In this document: positions 1 through 63,891 of the stretch, piece by piece | Layout of the letters: each line of letters starts with the position of its first letter | How positions within the stretch are numbered: position 1 is the stretch's first letter | From: Raillietiella orientalis | Lineage: Eukaryota | Length of the DNA stretch: 63,891 nucleotides | NCBI GenBank assembly: GCA_036172245.1 | Contig: JAYWIR010000148.1 | Coordinates: forward strand, 1-63,891 | Reading direction: 5' to 3' | Position numbers and translations under genes: made by a program | Notes under the pieces: model-generated | Database searches by the model: none | What the model saw: the letters and a program-made list of their open reading frames with translations, nothing else | What the model was told of the DNA's origin: nothing

Positions 1-459
1 AACCAGATGGGCAATCCGCACGCCTGCTTCGGTCAGCCAGTCTCTCTGGAGGGCAAGGAAAAACTCTTTCCTCGCCCTCCTGTTCATCAGGTCCTTGCGG
101 CTCGGTGCGTACACGTTCGTGACGATCAGATTGATCGAGTCGGACCACCTGAGAGTCAGCTGGACGACACGACCGTGATCGTCGAACCGCACGCCCCGAG
201 CCGCGGCCTCGACGGCTGGCCGGAGCAGGTAGGCGACACCGCAACTTTTCGCTCTCCCACACCTGTACCATAGCCGCCCTCCGGTGATCTGTTCGATCTC
301 TTGCGCTTGTTCTGCAGAGATCACGTGGATCTCCTGCAGCAGCGCAAGGTCGTAGGACTCCAGAAGGGCGGCCATGTCTCGTCTCCTGCCGGCGTCTGTC
401 ATGCCGTTCACGTTCCAAACGGCGATGCGCAGACGACGGCGGGAGGAGATTCCCGGCAT
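1..459 (-). pseudogene. ORF2 N-terminus (APE endonuclease), partial
   Basis: TAATG at 457-461 (minus), MPGISSRRRLRIAVWNVNG, LLQEIHV, TNVYAP. Confidence 0.88.
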
Positions 460-473
460 TACTGCTGGGAAGA

Positions 474-2135
474 TTAAGGTGTGGGGGAGCCCTCCTCTTG
501 CGAGGCGGGCGGGATGTTCATGGGGGTTTCGTCCTTCTCAGGCACCTGAGGCACCAGTTCGGCCTCCACCCCCTCCATCCCCTCCGTGTCCGCGCGTGGG
601 AGTCTCTGGGTCGACGGGTCCCGAGAGTTTCCCACGCTCATGGCACCCTTGCTTGCGGAAGCCATCTCTTCCCCTTCGACGGGGGAGACGAGCTTCCTTG
701 GCTTTGTGGACTTACGTCCAGCCTTCTTGCGCGGTGCCGTGAAAACGGAGGCTGCGCTTCCGGCCTCCACCTCGGGGTCGGAAGTGGGGGACTCCTGAGG
801 GGAGGCCGGAGGCCTTACGGCCTTCTTGCCAGCCTTGGAGGGTTCTGGCTGCAACGAGGCTGCCAGCTCCTCCGCGGCTCGCGCGAAGGCTACGTCATCG
901 ATGGTGGTGTCGATGACGGACGCCGCCGCCGGCTCGCTCCCCTCGCTGTTGACTGTGTCAACAGAGGGGAGGTCGTCGGTAGCGGCGAGTTCTTTCCGGC
1001 AGCGTTCGGCAACATCGAGAACGCGTTCGACAACGACGCTGCACTCTTTAAATATCGCGCTACCCTGCTCTTTCTTCTTCTGTTCTTAGGCGATTTTCTT
1101 TTCCATCCTCCTCTGCTTCTATGATTTTTTGGCCGTTGCCACTTGCCACTTAGTCTCCTTGCCGGCTCCCTCAACTTTTTCGGCGTTGGTCGCCGGTGTC
1201 TCGGCTGCGGCCTTGGTCTTGGGCGCGGGTGGCACAGCCTTCGCGGCAGCTTTCGCCGCCAGCCTTTTCTGCAGAAGCCGGGCGCGTTTTCTAAGCTTTC
1301 TCTTGGAAACCACCCGCACTACTGCTTTTGGGCACACCTCCCTCGTGTGGCCCATTGTGCCGCATACTTGGCACTGCACATTGGGACACCTCTTTTTGAG
1401 GTGGCCCGACGTATTGCAGAAGCCACAGTATTTCGGCTTCCCCACATACCAGAGGTCGACGGTTTCGCCTTCGACCACCAGTTTGTGGGGAAGAGTGCAG
1501 CCCTCCCGAACGGTCACGCGCGCAGCAGTGAGGCCGTGTTGCAGCCCCGTGTAGTCCTCGAAAGGACTAACTTTCGTCCACTGCGCGTGGACCGTTCCAA
1601 ACTGTTCCAAAGCGGCGCGAACCTGTTCTTTGCGCATTCGCGCGGTCACGCCTAACAGGTGGACCACCATGCTGCGGTCCGCCGTAGTGGGGAGAAGCCT
1701 GCGCGTCCCCATCACAACGGGGGTTTTAAGCAGTCGTTGGGCCAGCTCTGCATGTTCTCAGATGACCTCAACGTACTGACCCCCGCTGCAGATGGTCATA
1801 GCGCTAAGCTCCTCCTCTTTCACATCGAGAGAGCGCATGCCGTTCGAGAAGGCGCGCGCGCTCTCTAAAGAATATAAATTGCTTACCTTGTAGAACAATG
1901 AGGGGTTGTACCCCTCCTCCACATAGGCCGACAATTCCGCCGCGGCTGCTGGCGATGGCGCCGACACAACGGCGCTCCACGCCCGCGCTGCAGCAAGGAC
2001 CGATTCTGTGAGGGCGGATGCCACCACCTCCATCGCCTCTGGGGGTGACGTTTCCGCCGCCCCCGGGCTCTCCATCGCCTCTGGGGGCGGGGTTGCCGCT
2101 GCCCCCTGGCCATTCCTGGTGGTCGCGTCAGGCAT
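474..2135 (-). pseudogene. ORF1 (gag-like, two CCHC knuckles), disrupted
   Basis: ORF pieces 1758..2285, 1119..1715 and 474..854 join into one ORF1 homologous to 4515..6167, with a stop and frameshifts. Confidence 0.88.
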
Positions 2136-2228
2136 CGCTGCCTGATCGACCACCGAACCACACGACGCTTGCACTGGGGGAGACTTCCTGGCACGAGGAG
2201 CACCGAGAAAACACGTCCACCCTAGAGC

Positions 2229-4336
2229 GCACAAGGCGTTCGACTGTGTACACCAGGATCTCCTCCTAGAGCTCCTGAGTCGCATGGGCTTCCGACCCTC
2301 CTTGATTCCCTACCTGCGCTCTTGCTGGCGGAACGCGATAATTTCGATTTCTTTCAGCAGTCAAAAGGTGTATAACGTGCCGGTGCGGCGAGGCATACGG
2401 CAAGGCGATAGTCTAAGTTCCCTGCTCTTTAGCACCTACTTTCAGTTGGAGCTGAGAGCGTACAGAGTGATTTTGTCCCCCATGACGAGCTCATGTCCCG
2501 GCACGCCCGCCGTAAGTGTTTATGGTTACGTTTTGCTGCTCTTGTTACCTATGTGCACCCCGGCGAAGGAGGTCGGAGATTTCTTCGACCTCCTCAACCG
2601 CGGGACCGGACTGCAGGTGAACAGGGCGAAGTCGTCGGTGGTGCCAGTTGGTGCGGCGTGGGCAGGGCAGCAGGACTGGGTCCGTTTTGGGCCCTCCATG
2701 GGAGGTGCATCGAGTACCTTGGTGTGCCGTTGAAGGACTTCTCCCCTGCGGAAGCGTGGTCGAGCTGCGTGCAAAAAGTCGAGACGGCGATCGGCCCGTT
2801 CCTGGAAGGCAAGTTTCACTTGCCGGAAGGGGCCGCGGTTTGCAACGCCTTTGTGGCCTTCATCCTCCGCCTCTGCCTTTTTGTTTGCCCTGCCCCAGGA
2901 GTTTTTAAAAAGAGGGCGAAGGATCTCTTCCGCATCGCCATTTGGGGCGAGGGGAAGCCCCGAGTCCCTTTGAAGGACCTTTGCGTTCCTCGTCCGGCCG
3001 GCAGACTTAGCCTCTTTACGCTGGAACGCCTGGAGAAACAGCTGCCATGGCATATTCTCGCCAACGCTGCGAAAATGTGGAGCACCTTGTGGTGGATTCC
3101 GGCTCGCCATCTACCCAGTCTTGTGTCCTGGTGCGAGGGACTTGCGTCTTTTCTTCTGTGCCCTGGTGGGAAAATCAGAAGATGCGGCCTCTAGCACGGG
3201 CGCATGGCATCGTTGGCCATAGAGAACAGCTGGATGGTTTGCTGCCCCGATAACTCTTCCGCCTGGCTGAAGGAGAACATCGGAACGTGGGAAGTGGTGA
3301 ATGAGAGAAGCCACGTAACGTGGAATCGTCTCCGATGCAGCCCCTACGCCTCCTGTACTCTGAGAAATCTCCTAGAGAATCCAGCTAGGAGCACGTGGGC
3401 GGAGACAACCTGCCTGGTTACGGCGCTGCCCTTCCTAAGAAGGGCGCTTCATAGCAGTCGGACGCTAAGGTAACAAGTCTCCTGCTGCATCGAAGGACGC
3501 GAGAAGTTGATCAGGGGCTGGACAACAGGAGAACTGGCCGACGCCACGACCCCGAGCGTCCAGCCGCGAGGACTAAGAAGATGGGGCGAGCTGCTGGCCA
3601 TCCCTATTGATGTGATGAAGTGGCCTCCGCTTCTTCAGGAATCCAGGATCCTGCCCCTTAAGTGGAAAGAGTCGGCGTTGCTGTTGTTGCATTGGGGTTT
3701 ACCCTGCAACGCACGCCGCTCTCACTGGACAATAGAAGTTGTGGATCCTGCGTGTGTTAGGTGCGGAGAGCGGGAATCGCTCTCTCACCTTATTGTGGAC
3801 TGTGCTTCCCTTCGTCCCCTTTGCGAACGGTTGGGACGATCCTCGATCTCCCTACGGGCAGTTCCCCTAGAGACGTTCTTCAACCCCTCTTCGTGAAGGA
3901 CGCCCTGCAGCTAGCCGCAGCCCTTGCAGCCTTGTGCGGCGTCCGAGGCATCGTGGCGGTATGGAGCGACACCAACACGGAAAAGTTGGTCAACACGCGA
4001 TTGATGTCATCCAATATGCCCAACGCTTCTTGCAGAGAGCTGCTGGATGGCCCCGACTGAGGAACATACGGATGGACCTCGAGGGCTTTCTTCAACGAAT
4101 GGGCCCTCCTCTGGGAGAACAGAGATTCCTTCCCTGCTCTCCAACCTCTTTTGTTTGTTTGGGTTTTCATTTTCACTTTTGTTTTTTTCTCATCCCCTTT
4201 CGTTGCCGGAAAATGCCACGCCGGGCTCCGTCCCGGCGTCGCGGTAGGTCCCGTGCATAAGGCCGTGAGCGGGGACTGGTACCGCAATTGTAGAGCTTTT
4301 TATTGATAAACGCACCGGGTGTTCCCGGGTGGCAAC
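2229..4336 (+). mobile_element. Family C element, 3' part (RT from HKAFD, CCHC finger, 3'UTR)
   Basis: HKAFDCV, RGIRQGDSLS, YLGVPL, CVRCGERESLSHLIVDC, T-rich 3'UTR, ATAAA plus hairpin ending GGTGGCAAC. Confidence 0.9.
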
Positions 4337-4414
4337 TTCAAATCCCCGTGACAAGAGGTGCAAGGGGAACTCCTCGCAAAACTCGAGGACCGAGGCCTTA
4401 AAAAGGTCCCAATC
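4337..4414 (-). mobile_element. 78-bp ORF2 fragment of the host element that continues at 21138
   Basis: Reverse complement reads DWDLFKASVLEFCEEFPLHLLSRGFE, contiguous with GVTLQSLY at 21138-21162. Confidence 0.85.
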
Positions 4415-4437
4415 AGCGAAATTGCGGAGCGTCGAGC

Positions 4438-4444
4438 GGACGTG
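4438..4444 (+). promoter_or_regulatory. Conserved 5'UTR motif RGACGTG (DPE-like candidate internal promoter element); representative copy
   Basis: Present exactly or with small changes near all 12 element 5' ends. Confidence 0.5.
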
Positions 4445-4514
4445 TCTTTTCGTTGCTCCTGAGTCTCATTTCCGTTAGTGCTTGTGCGTGGAGTGGGTGG
4501 AGGATTAGGCACCA

Positions 4515-6167
4515 ATGCCTGATACCACCACCGGTGAGGATCCGGTGGCGATGACCTCATTGCCCCCGAAGGAGATGGAGGTGGGGGCTCCCGCATCATT
4601 GGAGGCTCCCGCCAGCACAAATGCGCCCCCGGCCCTACCCAGGGCTTGGAACGTCGTTGCTGCGGCACCTACGCCAGCGGCTATGGCGGAAATACGCGCT
4701 AACCTGGAGGAGGGGTATAACCCACCCCTTCTATATAAGGTAGGCGGTTTATATTCTCCCGAGAATGCGCGCGCCTTTTCGCAGGCGATGCGCGTTCTCG
4801 GTGTACTAAAAGAGGAGCTTCTGGCTATGTCAGTCAGAAGCGGGGGTCAATTTGTGGAAGTTATCTGCAAGGAGGCAACTCTTGCGCAGAGACTTCTGCA
4901 AATCCGCGTAATTATGGGCAGCTGCAGGCTTCTCCTAATTACTGAAGAACGGTCAGTGATCATTCACCTGACCGGTATCAAGTTCCGGATGACCAAGAAG
5001 GCCGTCCGGAACGAATTAGAAAAATTTGCAGCTGTCCACGCGCTGTGGGGAAACCCTACACCTTTTGTCGATTACGACGGGGTTCTTGGCGGCCTGGGTG
5101 CAGCGTCAGTGACGGTTTGCGAGGGATTTGAGTTTCCCCACAAGTTCACCGTCAACGGTGAATCCGCTGACGTGTGGTACGTGGGGAAACCCAAGTTTTG
5201 CGGCTGCTGCAGCAGCTTTGCTCACCTTAAAATGAGGTTTCCGTGCGTGCAGTGCCAGCAATGCAAACAAGCGGGGCACACCCGTCTGGTGTGCCCCCAA
5301 AACACAGTCCGCGTCGTGTCCGCGAAAAACGCGAGAAAGCGCGCGGATAAAAACAGAAAGAAGCTGGAAGCTCGTGCTGCTTTCAAGGAGGACACCTCCG
5401 TCACCAAGACGAAGGCCAGCTTCGAGACCCCGGCGAAAAACGCCGAAAAGGTCGAGGGCGAGGGTCAAGAGCCAGGGTGGCAGAAGGTCGACCCCAAGAA
5501 AAACTCCCATAAGAAGGGAAAGAACGTGGCGAAACGGAGCGAAACCGCTCTGCGCCGCGAAAAAATTAAAAGCTGCTGCGTCGTTGTAGAGCGGATTCCC
5601 GCCATCGACGAATGCGGCGCTAAAGAACTCGCTGCTGCCCCTGCTCAACCCTCCGTTTACAAAGTCAACAAGGAGGGGAGCGAGGCGGCGGCGTCCGTCA
5701 TCGAGCCCACGCTCGATGACGTCGCCTTCGAGCGCGCCGCGGAGGAGCTGGCTGCCTCGTTGCAGCCGGTTGCCCCCAAGGCTGGCAAGAAGGCCGTCAG
5801 GCGTCCGGCTTCCCCTCAGGAGTCGGCCACTTCCGATCCCGAGGTGAAGGCCGGAAACACAGCATCCATCTCCGCGGCACCCCGCAAAAAGGCAGGACGA
5901 AAGTCCACAATGCCCCGGAAGATCGTCTCCCCCGACGAAGGGGAAGAGATGGCTTCCGGTCGCGAGGGTGCCATGAGCGTGGGAAACTCCCGGGACCCGT
6001 CGCCCGAGAGAATTCCACGCTCGGACACGGAGGGGATGGTGAGGATGGAGGCCGAACAGGTACCCCAGGCGCCTGAAGAGGCCTCCGTCCTCGTTCCGAT
6101 GGTCCTCGTACCGATGGACCTTTCGTACACCTGCCCCGCGGCAGGTGCCGCGACGCCACTTTCCTAG
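4515..6167 (+). CDS. ORF1 nucleic-acid-binding protein (550 aa), zinc-knuckle region, low-complexity C-terminus
   Basis: Open frame; WYVGKPKFCGCCSSFAH and CQQCKQAGHTRLVC; the stop is 2 codons earlier than in the sister copy (CAG to TAG). Confidence 0.88.
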   Translation: MPDTTTGEDPVAMTSLPPKEMEVGAPASLEAPASTNAPPALPRAWNVVAAAPTPAAMAEIRANLEEGYNPPLLYKVGGLYSPENARAFSQAMRVLGVLKEELLAMSVRSGGQFVEVICKEATLAQRLLQIRVIMGSCRLLLITEERSVIIHLTGIKFRMTKKAVRNELEKFAAVHALWGNPTPFVDYDGVLGGLGAASVTVCEGFEFPHKFTVNGESADVWYVGKPKFCGCCSSFAHLKMRFPCVQCQQCKQAGHTRLVCPQNTVRVVSAKNARKRADKNRKKLEARAAFKEDTSVTKTKASFETPAKNAEKVEGEGQEPGWQKVDPKKNSHKKGKNVAKRSETALRREKIKSCCVVVERIPAIDECGAKELAAAPAQPSVYKVNKEGSEAAASVIEPTLDDVAFERAAEELAASLQPVAPKAGKKAVRRPASPQESATSDPEVKAGNTASISAAPRKKAGRKSTMPRKIVSPDEGEEMASGREGAMSVGNSRDPSPERIPRSDTEGMVRMEAEQVPQAPEEASVLVPMVLVPMDLSYTCPAAGAATPLS

Positions 6168-6172
6168 CCATA

Positions 6173-9100
6173 ATGCCGGGAATCGCCTCTCGCCGTCGTC
6201 TTCTGATCGCCTGTTGGAACGTGAACGGGCTAAGCGACGACGGCAAGAAACGTGACGTGGCCGCCACCCTGGCATCCTTCGACCTGGTGCTGCTGCAGGA
6301 GATCCACGTGATCTCCGCAGATCAAGCCCGGGAGATCGAACGGATCTCGGGTGGGCGGCTGTTGTGGCGTTGCGGCACCGCGAAATCAAGCGGTGTCGCC
6401 TTCCTGCTTCGGCCAGCCATCGAGACCGCAATAAAGGACGTTCGGTTCGATGACGCAGGTCGCTTCGGTCAGCTGACTCTCAGCTGGTCCGACTCTATCG
6501 ACCTGGTCGTCACCAACCTATACGCTCCTAGCGGAAACAACGCGTTGAGGGCGAAGGCAAGAAGGGAATTCTACCTTGCCCTGAGACGCGATTGGCTGAC
6601 CGATGCAGGAGTTCGCAAAGCGCACCTGATCGCAGGTGATTTCAACCTGCGCCTGCTTTCAGGTGCGCCGGATACACTGAACGACCGCGTCAACGAGTTG
6701 TGCGCAGAAATGAACCCGCGCAACTTGTTGGCCGGGTACACGGCCATGGAAAGCAGCATCGATCACGTGTACCTTGATCAGCACCTATGCTCTCGGGTGG
6801 GCAGGCGCGGCAAGGTACCATCCGAGCTGTCGGACCATGGTCGGATCATGTTCGAAGTGCGTCCGCGCGACAAGGGCCCCCCCTCGTCAGCGTGGCGTCT
6901 GCCAGGGGACTGGTTGAAGTTTCCCGACGCGGCGGAGCACCTCCGCGCGTTTATTCGGAGCTTCAGGATGCAGACACTTCAGGACTGGGACCGCTTCAAG
7001 CGGTCGGTCCAGGAGTTCTGCGACCAGTTCCCCCTGCATCGCCTACCTGCGGGATTTGGGGAGGGGCCGCGTAACGAAAGGTGCTATCTTCAGGCCCGAC
7101 GTTACGCGAGAACCCCCGACATGCGCAGGTTAGCAGAGTATCGAGCGGGAGCCAAGAGGCAAGCCTGGCAATCCCGGTCGGCTAGCTTGCTGGACGACCA
7201 GGGCCGGGAGCACTCGGCTCCTGCTCAGGAGCGCGGCATTGTGAAGAAATTTTACTCCTCCCTGTATGCCAGGGCGCCTCCGGAGCGAGACATCTCACGA
7301 CTTCTGCTTCCGGAAGGTGCTCCAGCGATCGGGGAGGAGGAGAAAAGAAGCCTCGACGAGCCTTTCACGATGGACGAGATCCTCTCGGCCATCGGAAAGC
7401 TCAAGAGGCGGAAGGCTCCAGGGGAGGACGGCCTGCCCGCGGAGTTTTACCAAACTTTCGCGGCTGAGCTTACTCCCCTGGTACATCAGCTCACCTTGCT
7501 GATCCGTGAAACAGGTGACGTTCCCACCTCGTTTCGTTCAGCAAAGGTGCGGCTCCTCCCGAAGGGAGGAGACCTAAGGAGCATGAACAACTGACGTCCC
7601 ATCACAATAGTGAATTCGGACGCCAAGTTGATAGCCAAGATGTAAGCAGAGCGTCAGGGACGTGTTGCCAGCATCTTCATCAGCCCGGAACAGACTTATC
7701 CTGTTCCCGGGCGGAGCATGGAGGCGAACCTGTTCCACGCTTCCACATGGTTAGAGCTCTAACAAGGAATGGGATTATTGAGCAGCCGGAATTCCGGTGC
7801 GTCTGTTGGCGGGAGACGGAACGGTCGGGTAAGGAAGGGAGCCCTTGCGGTCGCTGTCGACTTGCGTAAAGCATTCGACAGCGTCGACCAGAATCTCCTG
7901 CTGGAGCTTCTGGAACGCTTGGGCTTCCCGGCCTCTTTGTTGGCCTACCTGCGCTCCAGCTGGCGCGACGCGCTCATTAATGTTCTTTTCAGCGGACAAA
8001 CCGTGCACGGAGTAGCGGTGCGACGCGGCATACGGCAGGGAGACAGTCTGAGTCCCTTCCTATTCAGTACCTACTTCGAGTTGGTACTGAGAGCGTACAG
8101 GGAGACTCTGGCGCACCTGTCGAGCGATTGTCCCGGTACGCCTGCGGTTTGGGCATACGCGGACGATCTTCTGCTGCTGCTGCCTATGTACACCCCGTCT
8201 TCGGCGGTCGAGGAGTTCTTCGACCTGCTGCATCGGGGAACCGGACTTATGGTGGACAGGGCGAAGTCATCCGTAAGGCCAGTAGGAGCGGCGTGGGCTG
8301 GGCAGCAGGACTGGGTCCGTTTGGGGATCCCCACGGTGAGGTACTTCAAGTACCTTGGTGTGCCGTTGGGGGACTATTCCCCTGTAAAAGCGTGGTCCGG
8401 CTGCCTTCAGAAGGCTTATGCGGCGATCGGTCCGTTTCAGGACGGCAGGTTCTTCCTGCATGAACGGGCCGCGGCGTGGAACGCGTTTGTGGCCCACCTC
8501 CTTCGCCCCTTGCTTTTTGTTTGCCCCCCCTGAGCAGAGTCAAAGAAGGGGACGAAGGACCTCCTGAGGATCGCCCTTTGGGGCAGAGGGAGGCCCCGAG
8601 TCCGTCTTTCCGACTTGTGCGCTCCTTGTCTGGATTGTGGTCTGGGCCTTTTGACGTTGGAACGGCTGGAGTTACAGCTCCAGTTCCGAGTTGTTCCCTT
8701 TATGGCAGAAAATTGCGGCACCCCTGGGTGCCTCCTTGCACGTCTCCTCGTCGAGCGGGCCACCGGCAATGCGAAACTCTCGTCCTACATTGCACTCCGA
8801 AGCTTCATCTGCCACTGCGGACTTCAACTTCGGAGGGCGGCCAAGCTCGTGAAGAACAACTCGGCGCGGATCCTCGTACGCCCCGCGAACGATCCTGCCT
8901 GGTTGCAGGAAACCGTACGCATGTGGGCGATGATTCAGGAGCAGAGCCCGCAACACGAGTGAATAGCTCTGTTCGGGCCGCATGCCCACCGCACGCTCCG
9001 AGAAATCGTCGAGAATCCCCGAAGGAGAGCGTGGGCACAAAGAACCTCCCTTGCTGCGGTACTGCCTACCCTACGGGAACATCTGAGCAGCGACGTCGCG

Positions 9101-9754
9101 GCACAATGTGAGGTTACTGTCAAGATCGCCAGCAGAGCAAAGAAGATCGGGGATTAGAGAACGGGTCAGATCATTAACGCTGCGACCCCGAGGACCACCC
9201 CAAATGGACTGTTGCGCTGGGGAGAGCTACTGGATGTTCCAGAGGAACATCTCGAGTGGCCGCCGGTGCTCATGGAATCGCTCACCCTCCCCATGAAGTG
9301 GCAACAGTCGGCACTGCTTGTGATGCATTGGGGGCTTCCTTGCAACGCCCGCCGACACCACTGGACGCGGGGGTGTGTCAACCCTAATTGTGTCAGGTGC
9401 GGGGAGAGGGAATACCTCCTCCACCTGTTAGTGGATTCTTTTGCCCTCCGTGTTTTGTGGGAACGCTTTGCCGCAGCCCTGGGGATCCACGGAGGCAACC
9501 CTAGAGACGCTTTGCATACCCTTCTCGTCCGTGACGCCCTGCCTTCAGCGGCCTCGCTTTCAGCCCTGTGCTGCCTACGCGGGATCGTCGTAGCATGGAG
9601 TAAAGCAACGGGAGGATCCAGCGACACGAATGCCAACGTGTATGCCGCCCGTTTCCTCAGGATGGCGACGCGATGGCCCCTTCTGGAACCACACACGCAG
9701 AAACAGCTTGCCGGCTTTCTCCATAGGACGACGGTCCCTCCCAGAAGACTGTGA
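6173..9754 (+). pseudogene. ORF2: APE endonuclease + reverse transcriptase + C-terminal CCHC finger, several stops and a frameshift
   Basis: WNVNG, LQEIH, NLYAP, GDFN, SIDH, SDH; KAPGEDG, RPIT, KAFD, RQGDSLSP, YADD, KYLG; CVRCGEREYLLHLLVDS. Confidence 0.93.
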
Positions 9755-9822
9755 TTCCTTCCCGCTCCCTCCCTGATTTTTGTTTATTTCTTGTTTTCTT
9801 TTTGTTTCGTTCCTTCTCCCCT

Positions 9823-9966
9823 CTGCTGCAGAGGTCGACCGCGCGGGTCTGCGCACCGGTAGCCCGGCAAGCTATATTTTTCCAGGACGTGGATGGACTA
9901 CTGGTCCAGTCACAGATTGTATAGGTTTATTCGTGAGAATTAACGTCCCGGCGCACCCGAGTTTCA
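9823..9966 (+). other. Structured 3'UTR and terminal stem-loop; representative copy
   Basis: Stems are preserved with compensatory changes among families. Confidence 0.7.
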
Positions 9967-45900: not shown

Positions 45901-46459
45901 AAGGCTCCAGTGCAGGACAACCTGCCCGCGAAGTTTTATCAAACCTTCGCGGCTGAACTTACCCCACTGGTACAGCAACTCACCTTGCTGATACGCGAAA
46001 CAGGTTACGTCCCCGCCTTGTTTCGTTCGGCAGAGGTGCAACTCTTCCCTAAGGGAGGAGATCTGAGGAGCATGAACAACTGGCGCCCCATCAGAATAGT
46101 GAATGCGGACGCCAAGTTGCTGGAAAGGCTTGGGCAGAGCGTCTGGGACGGGTTGCCAACATCTTTATCAGCCCGGAACAGACATATGCTGTTCCCGGGC
46201 GAAGCATGGAGGCGAACCTGTTCCAGGCTTCCACCTGGCTAGAGCTCCAACACCAAAGGAGCTTGGTGCGCTGTGGAATTCCGGTGCGTGCGCCGGCAGG
46301 GGGTTTGATGGTCGGGTGGGAGAAGGAGCCCTTGCGGTCGCAATCGACTTGCGGAAAGCATTCGATTGCGTAGACCAGAATCTCCTTCTGGAGCTTCTGG
46401 AACGCTTGGGCTTCCCGCCCTCATTAGTGGCCTATCTGCGCTCCTGCTGGCGCGACGCC
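42907..46459 (+). mobile_element. Family A element, 5'UTR through RT motif KAFD, then truncated
   Basis: ORF1 42999-44648 with internal stops; ORF2 from 44663 to YLRSCWRDA. Confidence 0.92.
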
Positions 46460-47010
46460 CAGACGCAAGATTTCGAAGAACGCAGTGCGTTCCTCGGCCC
46501 TGTGGCTGCTCACCGGAGCGTACATGTTCGTGACTATGAAGTCGATCGAGTCAGACCACTTGAGAAGTTTTACAAACACTTGGCGCCAGAGCTGGCCCCC
46601 CTGGTGCTCAGGTTAAGTACACTGATCCGCAAACACGGCGAAGTTCCCGCCTCGTTCCGGACAGCAAATGTACGTCTCCTGCCAAAATCAGGAGACTTAC
46701 GCAACATTGGCAACTGTCGTCCCATCACAGTAGTGAATGCGGACGCAAAGGGCTATGCCAAGTTGTGGGCTCAGCGTTTGGGGCGGGTGGCCGCTTCCGT
46801 GGTGAGCCCCGAGCAGACTTACGCTCTTCCCGGACGAACCATGGAGACCAACCTGCTTCTCGCCAACTCATGGTGGCAGTTGCGACAACACGTTGCTCAG
46901 GATGGTCAAGGGAGCCTCGCGCTCCCCTCTGACCAAGAAGATCATGCAGAAGCAAGGACGGACTCGGCGGGAGCCTTTGCCGTCGCGGTCGATTTGCACA
47001 AAGCATTCGA
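46460..47010. mobile_element. Rearranged fragments: X-like minus-strand APE piece (46460-46566) joined to a plus-strand RT piece (46567-47010)
   Basis: Reverse complement LKWSDSIDFIVTNMYAPVSSHRAEERTAFFE; plus strand FYKHLAPELAP...AVAVDLHKAFD. Confidence 0.8.
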
Positions 47011-49237: not shown

Positions 49238-49247
49238 TTTCTTAGTG

Positions 49248-49409
49248 TTTCATCCGGGTAAGCCGGGGCCTTTATTACTAAAATTTTGAAATTACAAAAT
49301 TTTGTAACAGAGTCTATGTTGTTAAAATTTTTGTTTTTACGACGTCAGAAGTTCAGATCAGAAGTTTGGTAGCACTTGTGCTTACCGACCCGGAGGTCGA
49401 TAAGGTCCT
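49248..49409 (-). mobile_element. About 160-bp 3'UTR-only copy of family Y
   Basis: Shares GACCTTATCG...GTCGGTAAGNACAAGTGC and TAATAAA.GCCCCGGCT.ACCCGG.TGAAA with 60289-60480. Confidence 0.8.
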
Positions 49410-50066
49410 GCGGCGTAGCCACTAAAAGCCCTGGCATATCCCAGGACATTGGGCAACGCCCACAGCGCGTGGACGGTTTCTTATTGCTCCAAGCTTTCTT
49501 TTACGGCGTGCTTCGCCATCCGCATTGTTATGCTGGTTAGGTGGACAATGATCGAATTGTCCGCCGTGAACGGGAAGATTCTTGAACCGTTCACGGTCAT
49601 CTGCAGGCAAAGCAGCTGTTGAGCCATCCCTGCAGACCTGCAGTTCAGCTCAACCCGCTGCCCCCCACTTCTCACCGAGCCCGAGGACTTCGTCCTTCGG
49701 GACTTTTAACTCTTTAAGCTCGGCCGCGAACGGCCGCAAAACCTCGAAGGAATACAGGCCAGCTACCTTGTATAACAAGGCTGGGTTATACCCGTCGGCC
49801 ATGTATGGCTGCTGCTCTTCTAAGGGGGGCGCTGCCACCACCGCGCTCCAAGCCCTCGCCGGGGCGGGGAACGAATCCGTCGGGGAGATGGCCCTAACAT
49901 CCATTGGTTGGGGGGACGAGACTTGCTTGCCCCTTTCCGCCGTCTTGGTGGGGTCCTCAGGCATTTCTAACTAGGAACAACCACGCTGAAATCACCGAAA
50001 ACACCCGCGAAAACAACGGTTTTGCAGAGCTTCACAAAAACACATCGTCTCAGCCCGGTAAAGTCA
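49410..50066 (-). mobile_element. Family X element, 5' end and ORF1 N-terminus (MPEDPTKTAE...)
   Basis: GYNPALLYKVAGLYS and SGGQRVELNC; paralog of 40130-40790. Confidence 0.85.
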
Positions 50067-53800: not shown

Positions 53801-56800
53801 CCTAGGTGTGATAAATAGGAGCTTCATGATATGGTATGTCGCTTAGCTATTTGCCCAAAAAGTTGAGTTAAGGATTATTATTGCGATGCTTCCATACCAA
53901 GAAAGTAGGAAATAGGCAAAACCATGGTGTCATTCCCCCACTTGAGCAGACGGAGAAGTATAAAGATGATACTGCGTTCAAAAGTATACTTGGTTGCCTG
54001 GAGGATAAGTGCAGGGGAAGAACGAGCTTATAATTGCGTTTATACAATCAACTGGTTTGGTTGTTTACTTCCCAGCTGCTTTAGCTGATGTTGGATAAAA
54101 ATCGTTGAGAACAAAAATGGTAATAAGAAAGAAAATAAGATGAAAATTGTCTATGCCACATAGAGCGAAGAAGAACCACAAATAAACCTCTGAGAAAGAT
54201 ATTCGGAACTTGGTGAAATTCAACATTCTTGATAATGTAGCGAGTGATCCACCTGGATTCGGCGGTGTTGTCGACGGTAAGTGAAATGGTTTTCTCGTGT
54301 TTAACCGCAGAAAGGTTCTTCACCTTGTTCGCTCACTCGATCGTTTATGCAGAATCTCATTCAGCGCAGTGGAAAGCAATGTGGGAAAAGTCCCAAGCAT
54401 GAAATATCCATACCAATATACAATTTTTCTTTACGACTCCCCAAACAAAGGAGAATCTTTGACTGAATAAACACGCTATTTAAAAGCTTCAGAGCGCTTT
54501 TATCCGGTAAAACAGCCAGTAAACATCAACTCGCAGGGAAAATAGCTCTAAACATGAAAAACAGGTGTGGCTCTGGATTCCCATGGGAAATTTCTCCGTA
54601 TCTTGTCAAGCGTACCAAAGGTCCAAGCACAGATTGAAATTAGTTTTGTTTCATTCATAGTCAGAAGAGCGGAACAACAGATCTTTTTGATCGCTAGGGC
54701 TTGCACGTTTCTCTTTCTGCTTCCAAATCGCTAAACAAATGGAAAAAGGCTAATACAAGGGGAAGAAGATTTCATTTTAGTTTCCATAGAACGCATTCAG
54801 CCTTTCTTGAAAAAAGAATGATACACGGGGTTAATCGACATTTCCGGAATGCCGACTCTGAATTCTCTGTTTGCCGTTCTGATTTATGCAGCAATACTGG
54901 ATCTCAATCAAGGCGAAAGACGGGTGTATTCTCTTGTTGCACAATTGATCATTTGACTGATGTCTTTTGGAGCAAGGATGTGTTTTGAAAAAATTGGATA
55001 ATCGCCAATGTGAACCTGCAACGAATCGTCTCAGGAATTCTCGAAGCGTTAGAATGTTTTGCTCTGTTTACTGGTGCGCACTAGCTTCAATGTGCTTCAA
55101 GAAGAGAGCTTTGATGAAAAACGTGGACGGTGGGAGAAAATATACCAATGATACATGGAGCAACATGCGAGACAAACTTTCTGCCGTGGACATGGAAACC
55201 AAGCAGGAGGCTTTGATCTGTGTATCTCCTGACACCTATGAAAACAAGGCAAGTCGATCTCCCCCGTATACACGGCAGGTTTCTGGCTCAGGAGCAACAC
55301 GTGTAGGCCACGTGAGCAGGAAAGTTGCTAGAAGCAAGTCTTAACGTTTCTGAATACGAATAGAACAAACCAGGTGTGTGCGAGATTACCTGGGTAGGGT
55401 TCATAATTTATGATTCTTCGCAACTGCGCGAGATTCCTCCTATGCAAACATGGATGCAATGAAATGGAAATCACGGTCTCTAGATGAACATGCATCTTAG
55501 TCATGGGATTCTTCAAGAGGATTTATGTGTGCAAGAAACACATTCAATAATGCATGTGCATGCAAGAATGAGCTTAGGAATATTTGGATAAGGATACATG
55601 AAACAACAATGATGCTAATAAACCAAAATAGTTACGCAATGGTGTGAAGGTCGAGTATTGTCCTGGAGCACCGGGCAAGCGGTGCGCTTTCTTGCTCCTG
55701 CATTCAGATGATAAAGTTTTAGAGTTCGCTGCATGCTTGGAGGCTGCTGCAAGTATGGCTTCGTATGGATACCTTCAATCAAAATGTCTTGTTTATCAAG
55801 ATAGATGAAAATATAGCTTTTAGCAAAAGCTACGGCAGCGGGACATGGAGAGTACAGCGCTTAAACAGAAAAGAAATTTAGGAAGTACAGCAGCTTCATA
55901 ACAGACCCTCTATCCTCAATAGAGGTAAGAACGTAAATTAGAAAGATTAGAGAAATTACAAAAGCGTTTCCTTCTCAGGTTACACGGCTGCAGTTGTGCT
56001 ACAATCTATGTCCTCAGTTGAAGATATGTATGGAGAATCACGAAAAATCCAAGGTGGCTTTCCTAAACAAGGCATGAAAGTAACGGATTTGTGTGGTTTC
56101 ATCGAATCTGCCCAAGTTGCAAAAGCAGCATCCTGTAATTGGGATTGGGATTCAGATTTTTGCTCAGGCAGCTTGTGCTCTACTCACTACTAAAGTTCAG
56201 GTTATTCGGCTTGAAGGAAGGAAACTATCCACCTGGCAGGCTTAGGGCAACACCGAAGATGAGGAAACCGACGCAAGAAAGATGCAGTAGATCTGTGCAA
56301 ACTTTGAAAAGGATGAACTAAATGTGCTTATCTTATTCCAGCAGCTATCGCCTAGGCATCGGGAACAAAGCGCTTTCTCACTGTTCCTCCCGCTCTTTGG
56401 TGAGATAGAGCTTCTCTCACAGGTGTGTCACAGGAAGCTGGCATGCGCTCCTGCTCAATAGGAGTCCTCCTTTGGCGTAACTCGCGCCCAATGATTTCAC
56501 TCGCGCCAATAGTACCATGGGGATGCCCAGACTCCAGGGAATCAGGCTGCTTCTCGGAATCCACAGTTGTGTTCTTGTCCGCATTGCTGCCGCCCGCGGA
56601 CTTTCTTCTGCTATCACGAGAATGCGATGAGTGCTACTGCTTTACTAAACTGCGGTTTGTTGGGCGTCTCGGAGTTGCAGCACTTCAGAAGTGTTTTCCC
56701 TGTTCGTTACTTTTAGTAAAAACTCTTCAAAGAGCAGTAAGGAGCTGCGCTAATAATTATATCGACAAAATCTTGAGGAGAAATGGTTGCATGCATGAAT

Positions 56801-58700
56801 ATCTCAGAAAACTTTGTAAGATCGTCATCAAATTATTGCACTTTCCTAGACGCCGTTTTCGATCCGATGTTTTTCAGGTCCCGTGTCTTGGCAACACTGA
56901 ATTCAGTTCTTCAAATCCCCACCAGCAATACGGCATGGTCTTCGACGAATTCTTAACTGCGCGAAGTACATTTCTCTTGTACTCCGATAAAAGTATCTCT
57001 TGGTATTCTGTTCTCTGCAGCACATTCTTTGTGAGAGACTGTCTGTTTCCGGCTATACATCTTCCGGGATACAAGCATTATGAAACTTAGGAGCAAATTG
57101 CTGGTAGATTGCAACCTGCAAGAGCTTGAGCGGATTCATGCTATCATGCGCGATGTCCTGGAATGATGATGTGCTTGCTGTTGCCTTGTAGATCTCTGTG
57201 ATCAACCGTGCAATTTGTTAAAGAAAAACTATTCTTTTCAATGGAGTATGATACTTAGAAATTCCTGCGAAGATCGGACAATGAACGTTAATAATTAAAG
57301 GTGCAATACACTTTTAAAGATGCGACCACCTGCATACAGGATAACTCTCTTCCATGAAGCAACATTAGCAAACTCCTCAGCTGTAGAACGGGACCCAATA
57401 ACCTATCAATGGTTGACGACTTCTCAGCCATTCACCGACCCAGTCAACAACCCAGATCTGCGTATTCTCAAATAACACGTAAACAATAACATGTTAACAT
57501 GGTTAAACCATGTTAGCGTCCTCGTTTTAAACCCCTATCACAACATTACTTTTATTCCATAGTCCATCACAGTAACAAATAGACACTTGTCAATTCATAA
57601 CCCTTTACAGCTTATTGCTGAAAAAGTAAAGCCCTATTTGATAGATTTCGTTGTTGATTACATTCGGTAACCGCATTACGCTAGGAATCAACCATACGTC
57701 AGCAAACATTACTCAGCTTTGCACATGTTTCGCCATTTCGCGGTCGCAAATAAGAATTACAGAAATACAACTGTTTTTTCTTTTTCCATCCAAGGATAAC
57801 TTCAAACATGCCTTTGTCGAAAAATCTGCACCGAATGGATCCGAAAAGTATTTTCCTTATACAGCATTAACCGACTGAGTCATGAAGATTCATTTTGTGA
57901 ATATGAATTCTGCATGGACCCTACAGTGAGGAAAGTACATACTTTAGTCACTATTCCGCTCAACTTCTCACTGATTTATCAATGTTATTCCCTATCACTA
58001 TGAAATCATTTCATTACAAACATTCATCACCCCTAATACAATGAGCAACCCAAATGGAGAACATCTGCTTCCACCGTTCTAATGACTGCGCGTAAATTTT
58101 ACTTTCGGTAGATCAAAAATGCTATAGTGACACTATAGGAACGGAAAATTTAATAACGAATGGATCCATTATTACAATTGTTCTTCTCGAAGTACGTTGC
58201 GATCACTCCCATCTCATGGAAACTTATAGGATGGTGCATCCTCACATTGAACATTTGACATTCCATCTATTTTTCTGGAAAGTTTTTATTGTTGTCACTC
58301 AATCGCAACGCTAATATACTCTTCTGAAGTACATCAAGCAGTCTTAACTTCAAAAATAACTTGCGTTGCTTCGAGAATCTCGTTTGATAACAGAAATCCT
58401 TCTTCCAGTTGCTGCTAGCATGTGGTAGTCTTCTTCTTCAAATCCCAGTTATCGATGTTTCGTAATAGGCCTAAAAATTTCGCTTCAAAAGAAACAGCTG
58501 AAACATTTAATAGATCCACTAATGAAATTTAGAATTATCAGGAAATCCACATTCGGCAACAGAAGGCTGTGAGCTTATCCTCATCCGCGGAAACAACCCC
58601 CAGAAGTCAGAACGTCAGTCTAAGTAGCCGATTAGATGAATTACAGCACGCTGCGAGGCAAATGGGCAAGCACTTGAGCGAAAGAGGAAAACGTGAGAAA
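50823..58700. other. AT-rich island without these retrotransposons; no identifiable gene
   Basis: Abrupt drop in GC; only short ORFs without recognisable motifs. Confidence 0.6.
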
Positions 58701-58739
58701 GAATGTTGCGAATCCATCACGCTCCGACGTCGCGCTGCA

Positions 58740-59075
58740 GGGAAGGTCCAGGGACGATGGTGAGCAGGAGAGTGACTTCCCACACCTTCCATGCGACCCA
58801 GCTGATCAGTCGATTCCATGGAATAGGAAGAACAGCAACAGGAAGCACATCGTCCTGCTTGCGCTTCAAAAGATCGGGGTGCGTAAGTGGCCGTACCACT
58901 TTCCAAGGAATAATACCTGGATTCGAAAGTCACTGACACATCCGCGTGGACAATTCGAACGTCAGAAGACTGTGCAAAGACGACAAAAGACGAGACACGG
59001 CCTCTACGCTGCGTGACTTTCACCTGTTGCACCTGTAGGAGATCCATGTGATCACCACAAAAACGTCCAAAAGAT
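58740..59075 (+). mobile_element. Highly degraded C-like fragment (ORF1 end and APE start)
   Basis: ttccaaggaataatacctgg junction, NV..., EIHVIT. Confidence 0.7.
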
Positions 59076-59460
59076 TTCTCACCCGTTCAAGCCGGGTCGT
59101 TTATTTCATATAATATAAACAGTATCAATCACAATTATATAAAATGAACCAGTTGGAAACCTGGTTCCCATCCGAAGACTAAACAAGGATCAAGAGAAGA
59201 TTGCTAGCACGCAGGCCTAAATAACAGTCTTGCGAACGGGGTGTGGGGACGGGAAACACAAACAAACAAAAACAAAAGAAAAACAATTAATGGGGATGCC
59301 GGGACAAGAGTCTTTGGGATCGCCGTGGTGGGCACCGGGATAGAAGAAACGGCACCGGGAATACAGCAGAGCCAAAAAGGATGGGGTATGTGTGGGCTAC
59401 AGGACGCAGTGGTCAGCAGATTACGTTGTTCTCAAAACTGTGTAAACCAACAATGGATGC
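59076..59460 (-). mobile_element. Short 3'-end element with a distinct 3'UTR
   Basis: T-rich tract and AATAAACGACCCGGCTTGAACGGGTGA terminal hairpin; no clear ORF2 homology. Confidence 0.65.
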
Positions 59461-60288
59461 CAGCGCCAGGTCGAGCTCACTCAGGGTGTCGTCTGGGTCT
59501 CCCCTGTTACCGTCGTCGTGCAGCCCGTTGACATTTTAACGCGACGCGCGAATCCGATGGCCACTGGCAAGCCCAAGTATATATCGTGGGAAGATGGTGA
59601 TGAGGCGTCCGTCACCTGCTGGGGCGGGACACAAGGTGGAGGGGGAGAATCACGTGCTGAAGGCACCTTGTCTCCCTCCTCCATGGGTAGTGGCGCGTCG
59701 AGCGGATCTCCCGCACGTGAGGTCGCGCTTACCTGTTGGTCCTCCTCCATGAGGGCGCGCTGTTGATGATCGGTGGCAGCAGGGAGGACTTCACCACCCT
59801 GCTTTCCCTCCTCCATTTGGGTGGCCGACTCGACAGCTTCCGAGAGTGTGAGTTCCCCCTCCGGGATTCCGACGCCGGTGACGGCTTCTGTCTCCTCCTC
59901 CTTGCTGGTGGAGGGGAGGCGCCTCCTGGGCTTTTCGGACTTGCGTCTTGACTTCCTGGGGGGTGCCAACCCGAAGGAGGTTCAGCATCCTTTCTCCAGG
60001 TCTGACTCACCTGTAGGGGCCTTTTTTGCCGGAGTCGGCCTTCTCACGCCCTTGCTTCAGGGGTTCTCACGCTCGGCCAGCGTTGCCGCGAGCTTCTCCG
60101 CCGCCTTCGCCAACTCGGTGTCCTCGCAGTCGGTTCGAGCGTCGCGCGGTTCACCCCCTGTGTACACAGAGGTTTCGCCGTCGCGAACCTCGAGCGCATC
60201 GGAAATGGCGAGGGGAAGTTCGTCGAACCGGGTGGCAACCTCGGGAACGCTGACGCGCCCTAATGTTACCGCGCACTCGCGAAGGGAT
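59461..60288 (-). mobile_element. Family C fragment (ORF1 C-terminal half and APE start)
   Basis: Homologous to 16300-17125. Confidence 0.85.
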
Positions 60289-62465
60289 TTTCACCCGGGT
60301 GAGCCGGGGCTTTTATTATTAAGATTTTTCAAAATACACACAAAAAGAAATTTCATAATAAAGTCATGATTTGTTTTTTTTTGTTGTTGTTGTTCTTGTT
60401 CTTGTTTTTCAGTCGGGACATATGGACCGAATGTCTTCAGGCACTTGTCCTTACCGACTTGAAGGCCGATAAGGTCCTCTACACTGGCGAAGGGGCGGGG
60501 AAAACCAAAAATAAACAAAAAAAAGAAAACGCCTGGGGGGACAATGCTCTTCGGGAGGGAGAGGGAAGGGAAGGAATCACGGTACGCCGTGAGGAGGCCT
60601 CTGCATCCCATCACGAATGCGGATGAGTGTCTGTAAGTGTTTTCCAAGTCGGCGCCAACGGCAGGCCTTCTCCAAGGAGATAATTGCCCAGTGGATGGCA
60701 TTCCGACTGGCATGTCCTCTCCTTGACGCGGTCCACTTGTCCAGTATTCCGCGTATGCAACAGAGCACTGCTACACACCCGGAAGCTGGCAAGGCGTCCT
60801 ACATCAGAAGTCGAAAAATGTTCTTCGGGTCGCCCAGCGGTATGTTGAAGCTCGACAGGAGTCTGTCTTACATATCGCGAAGGGCAACCGAGTCAATGAT
60901 CTAGTGAGGAAAGGTTTCTCTTTCCCCACAGTCTGGACAATTAGCATCAACACTCCCCTGTGTCCAGTGAGACAAGCGCGCTCTGCTTAACAGTCCCCAA
61001 TGAAGCAGAAGCAACGCCGTCTCCTGCCACTGCAGGGGAAGGGTGCCGTTATCCCACGACTCCGGGGGCCACTTCACCTCCTCCAGAGGTACTTCGAGCA
61101 GCGCGCCCCAGCGTGAAAGTCCATTCGGCATGACACTCGGGGTACAAGCTTCCGCTAGTTTCCGAGACGTCCACGCCTTCAATAATTTTCTCCTGCCTCC
61201 GATGAGGCAGGACACTTCCCAAGATGCCCCCTGCTGGCTGTCCCGAACTTCCCTGAGGGAGGGCAGCACTAAGGCAAGGGGGAGAAAGGAGGCCCACAGA
61301 CGCTTCCGTGGGTTGCTGACGATTTGCTGCAGTGGCTGACCAGCGTACCTGCCTCTACGAAGGCAGGAGAAGTCCTCATCGCTGGAGCCGTTGATTATGG
61401 CCCATGCGGAAACGAAATCCTGGAGCCTGGTGGTCCAGTCCGCAGGGATGCAGGAAATCCACGGATTGTCTCTCAACAGGGCAATAAAGTCCCGCAGCTG
61501 AAAACCACAGTGGTTAAGGCTGCGGTCGTTGGCTACTTGGATTGAGGTCAATCCATGGCAGCCGGATGCCCTGTGAGCCAGGAGTCTCGAGGATGCACAC
61601 CAGGATGCGGTCCAGTACTTTGCAACAAGGGCGAGTTTACGGAATTAGAGCTGTCGCTACATGGGCTCCAGCGTCAGGAGACCAAGTCCACCGTCCCTGC
61701 GTGGAGCCCACAAGTCTTTAAGACGGACGCGGGGCCTCCGATTGCCCCAGGGGGCTTTTCTAATGAGACCCCTTGTCCTTTGATGACTTTATGGAGTTAT
61801 GGGGCATACAAAAAGTAGGATACAAAGGAGGAAGGCCGCAAAAGCGTTCCACATTGCGTTTCGTTCCTGCAAGTAACACTTGCCGTCCCGGAACGGGCCT
61901 ATCGCCAACTCCACCTCTTGGAGACGGGCGGACCAGGCTTCTGCTTCGCAGAACTCCCCCAACGGAACGCCCAGGTACTTCAAGTATTCGCCCGTGTGGA
62001 TCCCCAAACGGATCCGGTCCGACCCATTAGCCCTCGACGAGTCCGGAGAAATGATTGACGACTTCGCCCTGTTTTCATCGAAGCCTGTCCCACGGTTCAG
62101 CAACTCGAAGAAATCTTCGAGAGCCGATGCCGAAGTGGACCCAATAAGCAGAAGCAGAAGGTCGTCGGCATAGGCCGACACGGCAGGCGTGCCGAAACAT
62201 GAGCTCGGCAGAGTTGCCAAAGTCTCCCTGTATGCTCTCAGCACCAACTCAAAGTAGATGCTGCAGAGCAGGGGGTTCAGGCTGTCACCCTGCCGGATGC
62301 CGCGACGAACCGGCACGCCGCACACGTGCCGTTCGCTGAATCTGATGTTAATTAGCGCGGAGCGCCAGCAAGAGCGCAGGTACGCCAGGAAGACGGTCGG
62401 AAATCCCAAGCGTTCCAGGAGCTCCAGGAGGAGCTCCTGGTCGACTCAATCGAAAGCTTTAAGTC
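60289..62465 (-). mobile_element. Family Y element, 3' part from KAFD
   Basis: RGIRQGDSLNP, YADD, KYLG, CPDCGERETFPH, 3'UTR and terminal hairpin. Confidence 0.88.
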
Positions 62466-63891
62466 GCTTAGAGCAGACGTGTATCCTAGGTGCTCCTCGT
62501 GCCGGCAACCGTCCCTAGGTGTTGGCTTCGTGTTTGGTGGTGGTCGATCAGGAAGCAATGCCTGACACGACCACCAGTGCGTGTCAGACGGCGGTGGCAA
62601 CGTCGCCTCCTGAAGTAATGGAGCGCCAGGTGGCGGCGGCAACGTCGCCTCTAGAAAAGTTGGAATGCCAGGAAGCGGCGGCAACGTCGCCTTCAGTGGC
62701 GAAGGAGGTGGAGGCGACCGCCCCCACAAAACCGGTCCACGCTGCAGCTCGGGCATGAAGCGCCGTCGTGTCGGCGCCATCGCCTGCAGCCGCGGCTAAA
62801 TTATCTGCCTATGTAGAAGAGGGGTATATCCCATCGCTATTCTACAAGGTAGTGTATTTGTATCCCTCTGAGAGCGCGCGCGCCTTTTCGAAGGGGATGC
62901 GCGCACTCGATATTAAAGAGGAGGGGCTCTGCGCTATGACCATTCGTAGCGGGGGGCAGTACGTAGAGGTGATCTGCAAACACGCAGATCTGGCCCAACA
63001 TCTGCTCAAAACTCACGTGGTGATTGGGACACGCAGGCTCCTTCTTAGTATGGCGGATCAAATTATGGTGGTCCACCTTTTAGGAGTTACCGCGCGGATG
63101 CGAAAAGAAATATTAGACGCCGCGTTAAGAAAAGAAGGCACGGTCCATGCAGTATGGACCAAGCTTAGTACTTTTGGAGACGATACCACAGTTCAGTGCG
63201 ACCTCACAGGTACCCGTGTAACCGTTTGGGAGAGCTCTACCCTTCCCCAGAAACTGGTAATCGGCGGAGAAAGGGTCGATCTCTGGTACGTGGGGAAGCC
63301 CAAATATTGTGGGTTCCGCAACACGTCGGGACACCTCAAAAGGAGGTGCCCCAACGTACAGTGCCTGGTATGCGGGACAATGGGACACACGAAGGAAGTA
63401 TGTCCACAATCCGCTGTGCGCGTGGTTTCCGCAAGGAACCTAAAAAAACGCGCGCGGCTGCTACAGAAAAAACTGGCGGCGAAGGCTGCCGCTCAAGCTG
63501 TGCCACCCACTCCCGTGGTCCAGGCCTCAGCCGACACCCCGGCAACGAATGCCGAAAAAATCGACAACAGCGGTCAGGTGTCGGAATGGCAAGAAGCCAC
63601 AGCGAAAAAAAAAAAGTGGAAGAAAGAACGACGAATTGAAAAAAGCTCGCCTACCAAAATAAAAAGCAGCAGGTTAGCGAGAATTTAAAACAATGCAGCG
63701 TCATCGGGGAAGGCGTTTACGCCGAACGCCGCAAGGTAGAAATCGCTTCTACCGACGAGCAACCCACTGTTGAAAATGTCAACAGCGTGGGGAGCGAACC
63801 GGCGGAAGCGTCCGCCATCTAGACCGTGATCGATGACGCCGCCTACGAGCGTGCAGCGGAGGAGCTGGCTGCATCGTTGCAGCCAGACCTC
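62466..63891 (+). mobile_element. Family A element, 5' part; runs off the window end
   Basis: A-type 5'UTR with AGACGTG; ORF1 from 62558 with CLVCGTMGHTKEVC. Confidence 0.9.
62590..62717 (+). repeat. Three 42-bp units (AATSPxExME-like) in the ORF1 N-terminus
   Basis: GGCAACGTCGCCT recurs at 42-bp spacing; other family A copies have two units. Confidence 0.78.

Follow-up and report, generated by a model that had tools for sequence, protein, structure and literature searches.

The window analysed here, a single stretch of Raillietiella orientalis DNA of 63,891 nt (contig JAYWIR010000148.1, positions 1-63,891), is a nested pile of L1-like long interspersed nuclear elements (LINEs) with two open reading frames, ORF1 and ORF2. 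We think it likely that several co-active LINE lineages with sequence-specific APE endonucleases built this pile, each integrating at lineage-specific sites in the ORF2 of its relatives, members of its own clade included, and thereby forming a Russian-doll cluster. On a base-by-base reading of the window, 13 host/insert events place an element antisense in, or directly adjoining, the ORF2 of a related element. Nine of these fall at two nucleotide positions, a GFG site with four events and a KAFD site with five junctions, and these are the same counts as those given in a preliminary description of this DNA.

To place the junctions on a common scale, the most complete copy, R1 (4416-9967, plus strand), served as a 5552-nt reference. 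Three-frame translations of R1 were compared with the window by tblastn and the fragments aligned with MAFFT, which placed 24 LINE fragments on R1; element boundaries were then read base by base. The GFG site (PxGF|G, codons GGA TTT GGG) lies near reference position 2647. Here the 3' part of el2 (2230-4336, plus strand, reference ~3450 to the end) adjoins host H0 through its 3' tail GGTGGCAAC at 4336|4337, and full-length el6 (12611-18275, minus strand) sits in A2 with both junctions visible (12610|12611 and 18275|18276). The 5' end of el11 (27180-29218, minus strand, reference 2 to ~1947) adjoins host H at 29218|29219, and H in turn adjoins el14 (38060-40790, minus strand, reference 1 to ~2649) through its own 3' tail GGTGACAAC at 38059|38060.

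The KAFD site (HKAFD, reference ~3450-3464) is occupied by four 5' junctions that lie directly ahead of the H/Y/L codon of HKAFD and by one 3' junction. E1 (1-2229, minus strand), which covers reference 8-2216 from a full-length 5' end to the APE domain before it runs off the left window edge, enters el2 at 2229|2230. The 5' end of el9 (23743-25097, minus strand, reference 3-1368) adjoins el10 (25098-27179, plus strand, reference ~3451 to the end) at 25097|25098. At 42905|42906, el16 (42906-46482, plus strand, reference 16-3602) enters el15 (40791-42905, minus strand, reference ~3446 to the end), and at 62463|62464 the 5' part of el23 (62464-63891, plus strand, running off the right window edge) enters el22 (60290-62463, minus strand, a 3' part). 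The fifth junction, at 47011|47012, joins the 3' tail GGGTGAAT of el18 (47012-49244, minus strand, reference 3308 to the end) to el17 (46483-47011, plus strand, reference ~2941-3464), a reverse transcriptase (RT) fragment without clade assignment that ends just past HKAFD.

The remaining events occupy four further sites. A tandem of R1 and A2 lies in H0 at the DW site (reference ~2568; junctions 4415|4416 and 21138|21139, the latter formed by the A2 tail GGGTTTCCA), and full-length el13 (29797-35697, minus strand) lies in H at the DAKLIA site (reference ~3215; 29796|29797 and 35697|35698). Two sites fall in the APE region: el10 adjoins el11 after ..GGRL (reference ~1947) through its tail GGGTGATAAA at 27179|27180, and el25 adjoins el24 (58898-59078, plus strand, an APE fragment at reference ~1744-1920) after ..AQE/KR (reference ~1920) at 59078|59079. 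When 13 breakpoints were thrown uniformly onto 5552 nt in 200,000 simulations, at least five fell within 20 nt at a frequency of ~5e-6 and at least four at 1.3e-4; the positional clustering given in the preliminary description is confirmed for the window.

All three hosts that are visible on both flanks behave as true insertion targets. Around el13, the two pieces of H (Ha, 29219-29796, between the GFG and DAKLIA sites, and Hb, 35698-38059, the 3' part; both plus strand) carry an 8-bp target-site duplication, TTGATAGC, at 29789-29796 and 35698-35705. Around el6, the 5' part of A2 (A2a, 9968-12610, reference 1 to ~2647) and its 3' part (A2b, 18276-21138, reference ~2641 to the end; both plus strand) carry a 4-bp duplication, TTGG, at 12607-12610 and 18276-18279. 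Around the R1/A2 tandem, a 79-nt piece of H0 between the GFG and DW sites (H0a, 4337-4415) rejoins the 5' part of the same host (H0b, 21139-23742, reference 16-2568; both minus strand) seamlessly, with no gain and no loss. The target-site duplications and the seamless two-sided host confirm that the junctions are real insertions. Separate events share exactly the same junction nucleotides, so that insertion is sequence-specific, a trait of the Tx1 clade of LINEs.

The elements have precise termini. Their 3' ends are built on a common, partly GC-rich box in which AATAAA is followed by CGCCCCGG, a spacer of 4-7 nt, CCGGGTG and a short lineage-specific tail, and they lack poly(A) despite the AATAAA signal; their 5' ends share ..GCGGACGTGTTTTT.. 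after a short variable leader. With nhmmer profiles we located 12 3' ends and 12 5' ends in the window, although 11 of the 12 3' ends and all 12 5' ends had gone into profile training, so that only the 3' end at 59079 was newly found. The 3' tails differ by clade: GGTG(A/G)CAAC in clade C, GGGTTTC(A/C)A in clade B, GGGTGGCA in lineage D and GGGTGAAT in el18. A conserved 3' hairpin was considered and rejected: its stem has only 4 bp, one of the four pairs shows one compensatory change, and there is no real covariation support. We therefore retain the 3' box as a sequence feature and not as a supported structure.

To assign the elements to lineages, we computed maximum-likelihood trees for the 5' and 3' halves separately, with ultrafast bootstrap support. 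The 5'-half tree contains clade A (E1, el9, el16 and el23; support 100), clade B (R1 and A2) and clade C (el6, H0b, el11 and el21; support 100/98), with el13, which we call lineage D, as sister to C (100) and el14 as a lineage of its own. The 3'-half tree contains clade B with el18 as its sister (100), clade C (el6, el2 and Hb; support 82) together with el13 (100), clade E (el15 and el22; 100), and el10 on a long branch of its own (lineage Z). Clade and site correspond where a site recurs: the inserts at GFG (el2, el6, el11 and H) belong to clade C in four of four cases, and those with 5' junctions at KAFD belong to clade A in four of four. At the other sites, clade B is found at DW, D at DAKLIA and the long-branch lineage in APE. 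The claim that the site tracks the subfamily of the insert accordingly holds for C at GFG and for A at the KAFD 5' junctions; it does not extend to el18 at KAFD, which cannot be assigned to clade A, and for B, D and the APE sites it has one locus each behind it.

The nesting gives the order of events. Reading ">" as "contains", the nest has eight levels, el14 > H > el11 > el10 > el9 > H0 > el2 > E1, of which el14 is the outermost visible host; side branches are H0 > R1/A2 tandem, A2 > el6, and H > el13. In relative age, el9 (clade A) is therefore older than H0 (C), H0 is older than both A2 (B) and E1 (A), and A2 is older than el6 (C), an order that places lineages A, B and C as active over the same period. 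Clade C elements also serve as hosts to their own clade, as with el2 in H0 and el11 in H; self-immunity is thus not apparent.

The family is of L1 type. The GC-rich parts of the window (54-62% G+C, at 1 to ~50,900 and ~58,600-63,891) consist wholly of diverged copies of one repeat family on both strands, with self-matches of 70-94% identity. Domain searches of the translations place an APE endonuclease (PF03372, E 3e-16) at the N-terminus of ORF2 and an RT domain (PF00078, RVT_1, E 5e-15 to 2e-18) downstream of it, and the same translations show the motifs WNVNG, QEIH, GDFN, SDH and YADD. Two zinc-finger matches stay below threshold: zf-RVT in ORF2 is weak (19.6 bits against a cut-off of 27.5), and zf-CCHC reaches 20.3 bits against a cut-off of 20.8, with Cys/His knuckle patterns seen in ORF1. 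The top relative of solved structure is human L1 ORF2p (APE/linker E 1e-25, RT E 3e-33), and R2 proteins score far weaker. The APE-then-RT order of ORF2 and the L1 ORF2 proteins as closest relatives together place the elements in the L1 superfamily. The database relatives do not identify the LINE clade: the 86 protein database matches are all at most 32% identical and mostly unnamed, and those with names are mostly Batrachochytrium hypothetical proteins. A search of the ESM Atlas returned generic RT clusters only, and a metagenome scan with a single-protein query gave two loci at 23% identity, too remote for use. R1 itself is a full-length clade B copy with ORF1 at 4509-6167 and an ORF2 (APE and RT) split into at least four frames.

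Several observations weigh against the reading of co-active lineages with private target sites, or limit how far it can be carried. The evidence is a single 64-kb window in which DW, DAKLIA and each APE site is represented by one locus, and in which no copy keeps an intact ORF2. Clade E (el15 and el22) has no common target, and el13 and el6 occupy different sites although they are similar in their 3' halves. The only 3' junction at KAFD belongs to el18, which is not demonstrably clade A, and no clade A copy is preserved with both of its junctions, so that the duplication of about 15 bp attributed to this clade below is pieced together from separate 5' and 3' junctions. The antisense rule is also not without exception: it holds for all six sites and for 13 of the 19 LINE-LINE adjacencies in the window, but six adjacencies are in sense orientation (the tandems R1|A2, el15|el14 and el22|el21, plus H0|el9, el16|el17 and el19|el18). 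Finally, the targets had been portrayed as conserved coding motifs, and KAFD and DAKL correspond to classic RT motifs; at the DNA level, the portrayal is not borne out. Ranked by conservation among the 24-nt windows of ORF2, the APE site after ..GGRL stands at the 21st percentile, the APE site after ..AQE/KR at the 51st, DW at the 58th, DAKLIA at the 65th, GFG at the 66th and KAFD at the 78th; misaligned junction ends may lower these values somewhat, but the target DNA is not exceptionally conserved.

At 40790|40791, 60289|60290, 49244|49245 and 9967|9968 elements are joined head to tail, a 3' tail running directly onto a 5' end or a 5'-truncated start; three of the four joins connect different lineages, and all resemble the tandem arrays described for the LINEs Zepp and Cnl1. 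At 46482|46483, clade A el16 ends at reference ~3602 and is followed by the sense RT fragment el17 from reference ~2941. The 5' end of H0 lies sense in ORF1 of el9 and cuts it. We considered whether a sequence similar to the GFG target had led H0 into el9 and set this aside: the upstream sequence CCCCCTCC, in the flank at 23743-23760, resembles the GFG word CCCCTCCCC but is offset by ~6 nt, and the likeness is anecdotal.

The copy el18 is a mosaic: it is el13-like at reference 3300-3600, with 86-88% likeness at 3400-3600, and from reference 3600 on it is closest to clade B, all within one continuous reading frame. This pattern suggests recombination between lineages. We also considered el18 as a clade A element, but this is unproven, as el18 is mosaic and no clade A copy retains a 3' half; for the same two reasons the fifth KAFD junction cannot be assigned to A.

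The most likely mechanism is as follows. Each lineage would use its own APE endonuclease and RT for target-primed reverse transcription at a lineage-specific word in the ORF2 of relatives, and a target read on the antisense strand would leave the insert backwards in its host. The endonuclease probably sets the target site, by recognising its own DNA word and nicking both strands at a lineage-specific spacing; we infer this role by analogy with R1Bm and Tx1L, for which it is established that the endonuclease determines the target (PMC1919474; PMC4494074). Nick spacing could then explain the length of the duplications, 0 bp in B, 4 bp in C, 8 bp in D and ~15 bp in A. Reverse transcription would start at the short tail and not at poly(A), with read-through or pairing between tail and target perhaps setting the start, and repeated hits on one site, such as a re-use of DW, would produce head-to-tail tandems. 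Such a mechanism would fit the window because the junctions are exact to the nucleotide, duplication lengths are clade-specific, poly(A) is absent and DW appears to have been re-used.

Three other explanations of the junctions were weighed. Segmental duplication, unequal exchange or gene conversion, in a repeat-rich setting such as a centromere, might have turned a few ancestral nested insertions into many. This DNA is indeed highly repetitive, as its long self-matches at 70-94% identity show, and the halves of H0 and H, like those of el2 and el11, do not overlap on the reference and so allow no direct comparison. Where comparison is possible, however, the likeness between inserts far exceeds that between the elements that host them. 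E1 and el16 share 91.7% of 2223 nt, whereas el2 and el15, their respective hosts, share 70.1% of 795 nt; for E1 and el9 the figure is 82.3%, and for the hosts el2 and el10 it is 65.0%. Such unequal divergence argues against duplication of a single ancestral host/insert pair as the source of the recurrences. Hosts at one site also come from different clades (the comparable GFG hosts H0, A2 and el14 are 47-61% identical and represent three clades), the leaders differ between the two GFG 5' junctions, target-site duplications are present, and the events are nested within each other and not side by side. One comparison counts in favour of duplication: el16 and el23 are 73.4% identical and their hosts el15 and el22 are 70.4% identical, an about equal divergence, so that these two KAFD junctions could go back to a single event that was later duplicated, which leaves at least four independent KAFD junctions. 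We therefore consider wholesale duplication unlikely; within the window the recurrent junctions are independent insertions, with the el16/el23 pair possibly a single event.

Site and orientation might instead be set by nucleic-acid pairing and not by an endonuclease. The invading RNA would hybridise to homologous host ORF2 DNA, and the displaced sense strand would be nicked and prime reverse transcription, which would force an antisense insert. All six distinct sites are indeed antisense (two-sided binomial P = 0.03), and at every target the insert and its host have homologous sequence. Against this stand the entry of clade A into hosts only ~60-70% identical to it, such as el10, the single exact nucleotide and the private duplication length of each clade, the sense position of H0 within the ORF1 of el9, a place at which the two elements lack homology in the register that pairing would need, and the fact that the targets are not the best-conserved stretches. 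On balance we judge pairing an improbable basis for site choice. The third explanation, that the junctions are assembly artefacts in the form of chimeric joins between repeat copies, we give a very small chance. The window is repetitive, one sequencing run (X1) contains only a fraction of 0.26 of the sampled words of R1, and among the contig records listed none bridges a named junction; artefacts, however, would not yield precise termini, matching duplications, seamlessly rejoined hosts and a clade-specific site. Integration by each lineage at its own ORF2 site remains the reading that we prefer.

The sequencing runs also bear on the abundance of the family. In run X1, 663 contigs align to 29219-49200 at 80% identity or more, 27 of them at 99% or more and 405 below 90%; these numbers and this spread indicate that the LINE family is abundant and diverse in that sample. 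Runs X2 and X3 contributed two and one aligned contigs, respectively. Among the joints listed, most lead from one homologous copy to another at an unchanged reference coordinate (as in 42824/46417 and 46458/48999), and a loose end at 33016 is mere divergence from the window sequence. One joint, 44826 followed by TTCT and 29800, brings an A-like APE at ..AQEI|ER up against a 3'-box terminus, a hint of the same geometry as the el25/el24 junction in a host of a different, A-like clade. Another, in an X1 contig, links an A-like APE at ..AGD|(FN) (45130) to a 3'-box terminus (29801), with 16 other letters between; the GDFN motif may thus hold one more antisense site.

The rest of the window holds smaller features. 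Between el18 and the G+C-poor island described next lies el19 (49245-50060, minus strand), a short copy that keeps its two termini but has lost internal sequence. At 59079-60289 (minus strand), a 3' untranslated region with the tail GGGTGAGAAA (el25, 59079 to ~59330) and a C-like ORF1/APE piece (el21, 59461-60329 by tblastn) stand ~130 nt apart, and together may be one element with a ~3.3-kb internal deletion. The island itself (50900-58600, 7.7 kb, 41-44% G+C) separates two LINE blocks and has no LINE similarity; it contains no ORF longer than 228 amino acids and no Rfam match, and may represent the genome's normal composition. Tandem repeats occur in the 5' region or ORF1 start of two groups: el13 has 24/48-nt units in 4-8 copies (35312-35524), and the clade A copies E1 (2028-2110), el16 (43024-43106) and el23 (62590-62696) have a 42-nt unit in 2-2.5 copies.

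A wider picture, which we put forward only tentatively and hold to be rather doubtful, is that of a transposon ecosystem closed upon itself. Its members, six or more sister LINE lineages, would live mainly or solely in the ORF2 of one another, each at one exact antisense site, and every jump would be both a harmless landing and the disabling of a competitor. The resulting arrays would form GC-rich chromosome islands, possibly centromeres, and the antisense rule would reflect a shared mechanistic or selective constraint and not chance. Target-specific LINEs are natural models both for programmable gene insertion at safe sites and for selfish elements that limit harm to their host. If lineage-specific integration within ORF2 is confirmed, the family would offer an alignable set of several close APE relatives that differ in exact target and in nick spacing, from which the determinants of specificity could be mapped. 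Transposon lineages would here also partition a niche, possibly with interference competition, in which the coding sequence of their own family is the resource, and the locus would supply a nucleotide-level mechanism for the growth of LINE islands like those of Zepp.

Exact-word matching across bioRxiv and open PMC papers turned up no account of a system in which several LINE lineages hit fixed antisense positions within the ORF2 of one another. The new part is the multi-lineage partition of sites; LINEs that target transposons or their own copies have already been described (Tx1 families, Zepp and Cnl1). Among the LINEs specific to ribosomal DNA (R1, R2 and others; here the R1 element and not our reference copy), each lineage owns a different exact site in one multicopy unit. 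The window elements resemble this set in partitioning niches within a repeated target, but the ribosomal LINEs target an array of host genes, and the endonuclease of R2 is of another type, whereas in the window the target is the LINE family itself.

Zepp of Chlorella and Coccomyxa and ZeppL of Chlamydomonas are L1-type LINEs found almost only in nested clusters and are said, in the portions of the sources available, to target existing copies (PMC8226300, PMC3446292). Their clusters form GC-rich peaks, 61% against 53% in Coccomyxa (PMC8226300, PMC3446292), and Zepp arrays consist of tandem, mostly 5'-truncated 3' ends (PMC8226300, citing Higashiyama 1997). The window elements are likewise L1-type, nested and GC-rich (~59% against ~42%), a likeness drawn from descriptions and not from phylogeny; unlike Zepp, they show 12 full-length 5' ends to 12 3' ends, mostly antisense events, of which there are 13 against only three head-to-tail tandems, fixed ORF2 nucleotides, several lineages and no poly(A). 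Cnl1 of Cryptococcus inserts preferentially in itself and forms nested arrays in tandem orientation (PMC9942834); as far as that text is available, it differs from the window elements in being a single family, tandem (sense), subtelomeric and often 5'-truncated. The accessible text of a preprint on CENH3 and ZeppL (10.1101/2025.03.28.645958) and of one on brown-alga centromeres (10.64898/2025.12.07.692804) describes no fixed sites within ORF2.

A further close case is the Tx1 clade, in which the endonuclease makes insertion sequence-specific and whose targets, in the available text, include Tx1D for Tx1L, Mariner-N4_AMi for Tx1-Mar, long terminal repeat retrotransposons for Tx1-8_Crp and Tx1-4_AMi, and U2 for Keno (PMC4494074). 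That text describes no sister lineages sharing one host element. By description and not by phylogeny, these families and the window elements are alike as APE-type LINEs with sequence-specific insertion, several of them into another transposon; they differ in that the described Tx1 targets are unrelated transposons or RNA genes, whereas the elements of the window enter the ORF2 of their own relatives.

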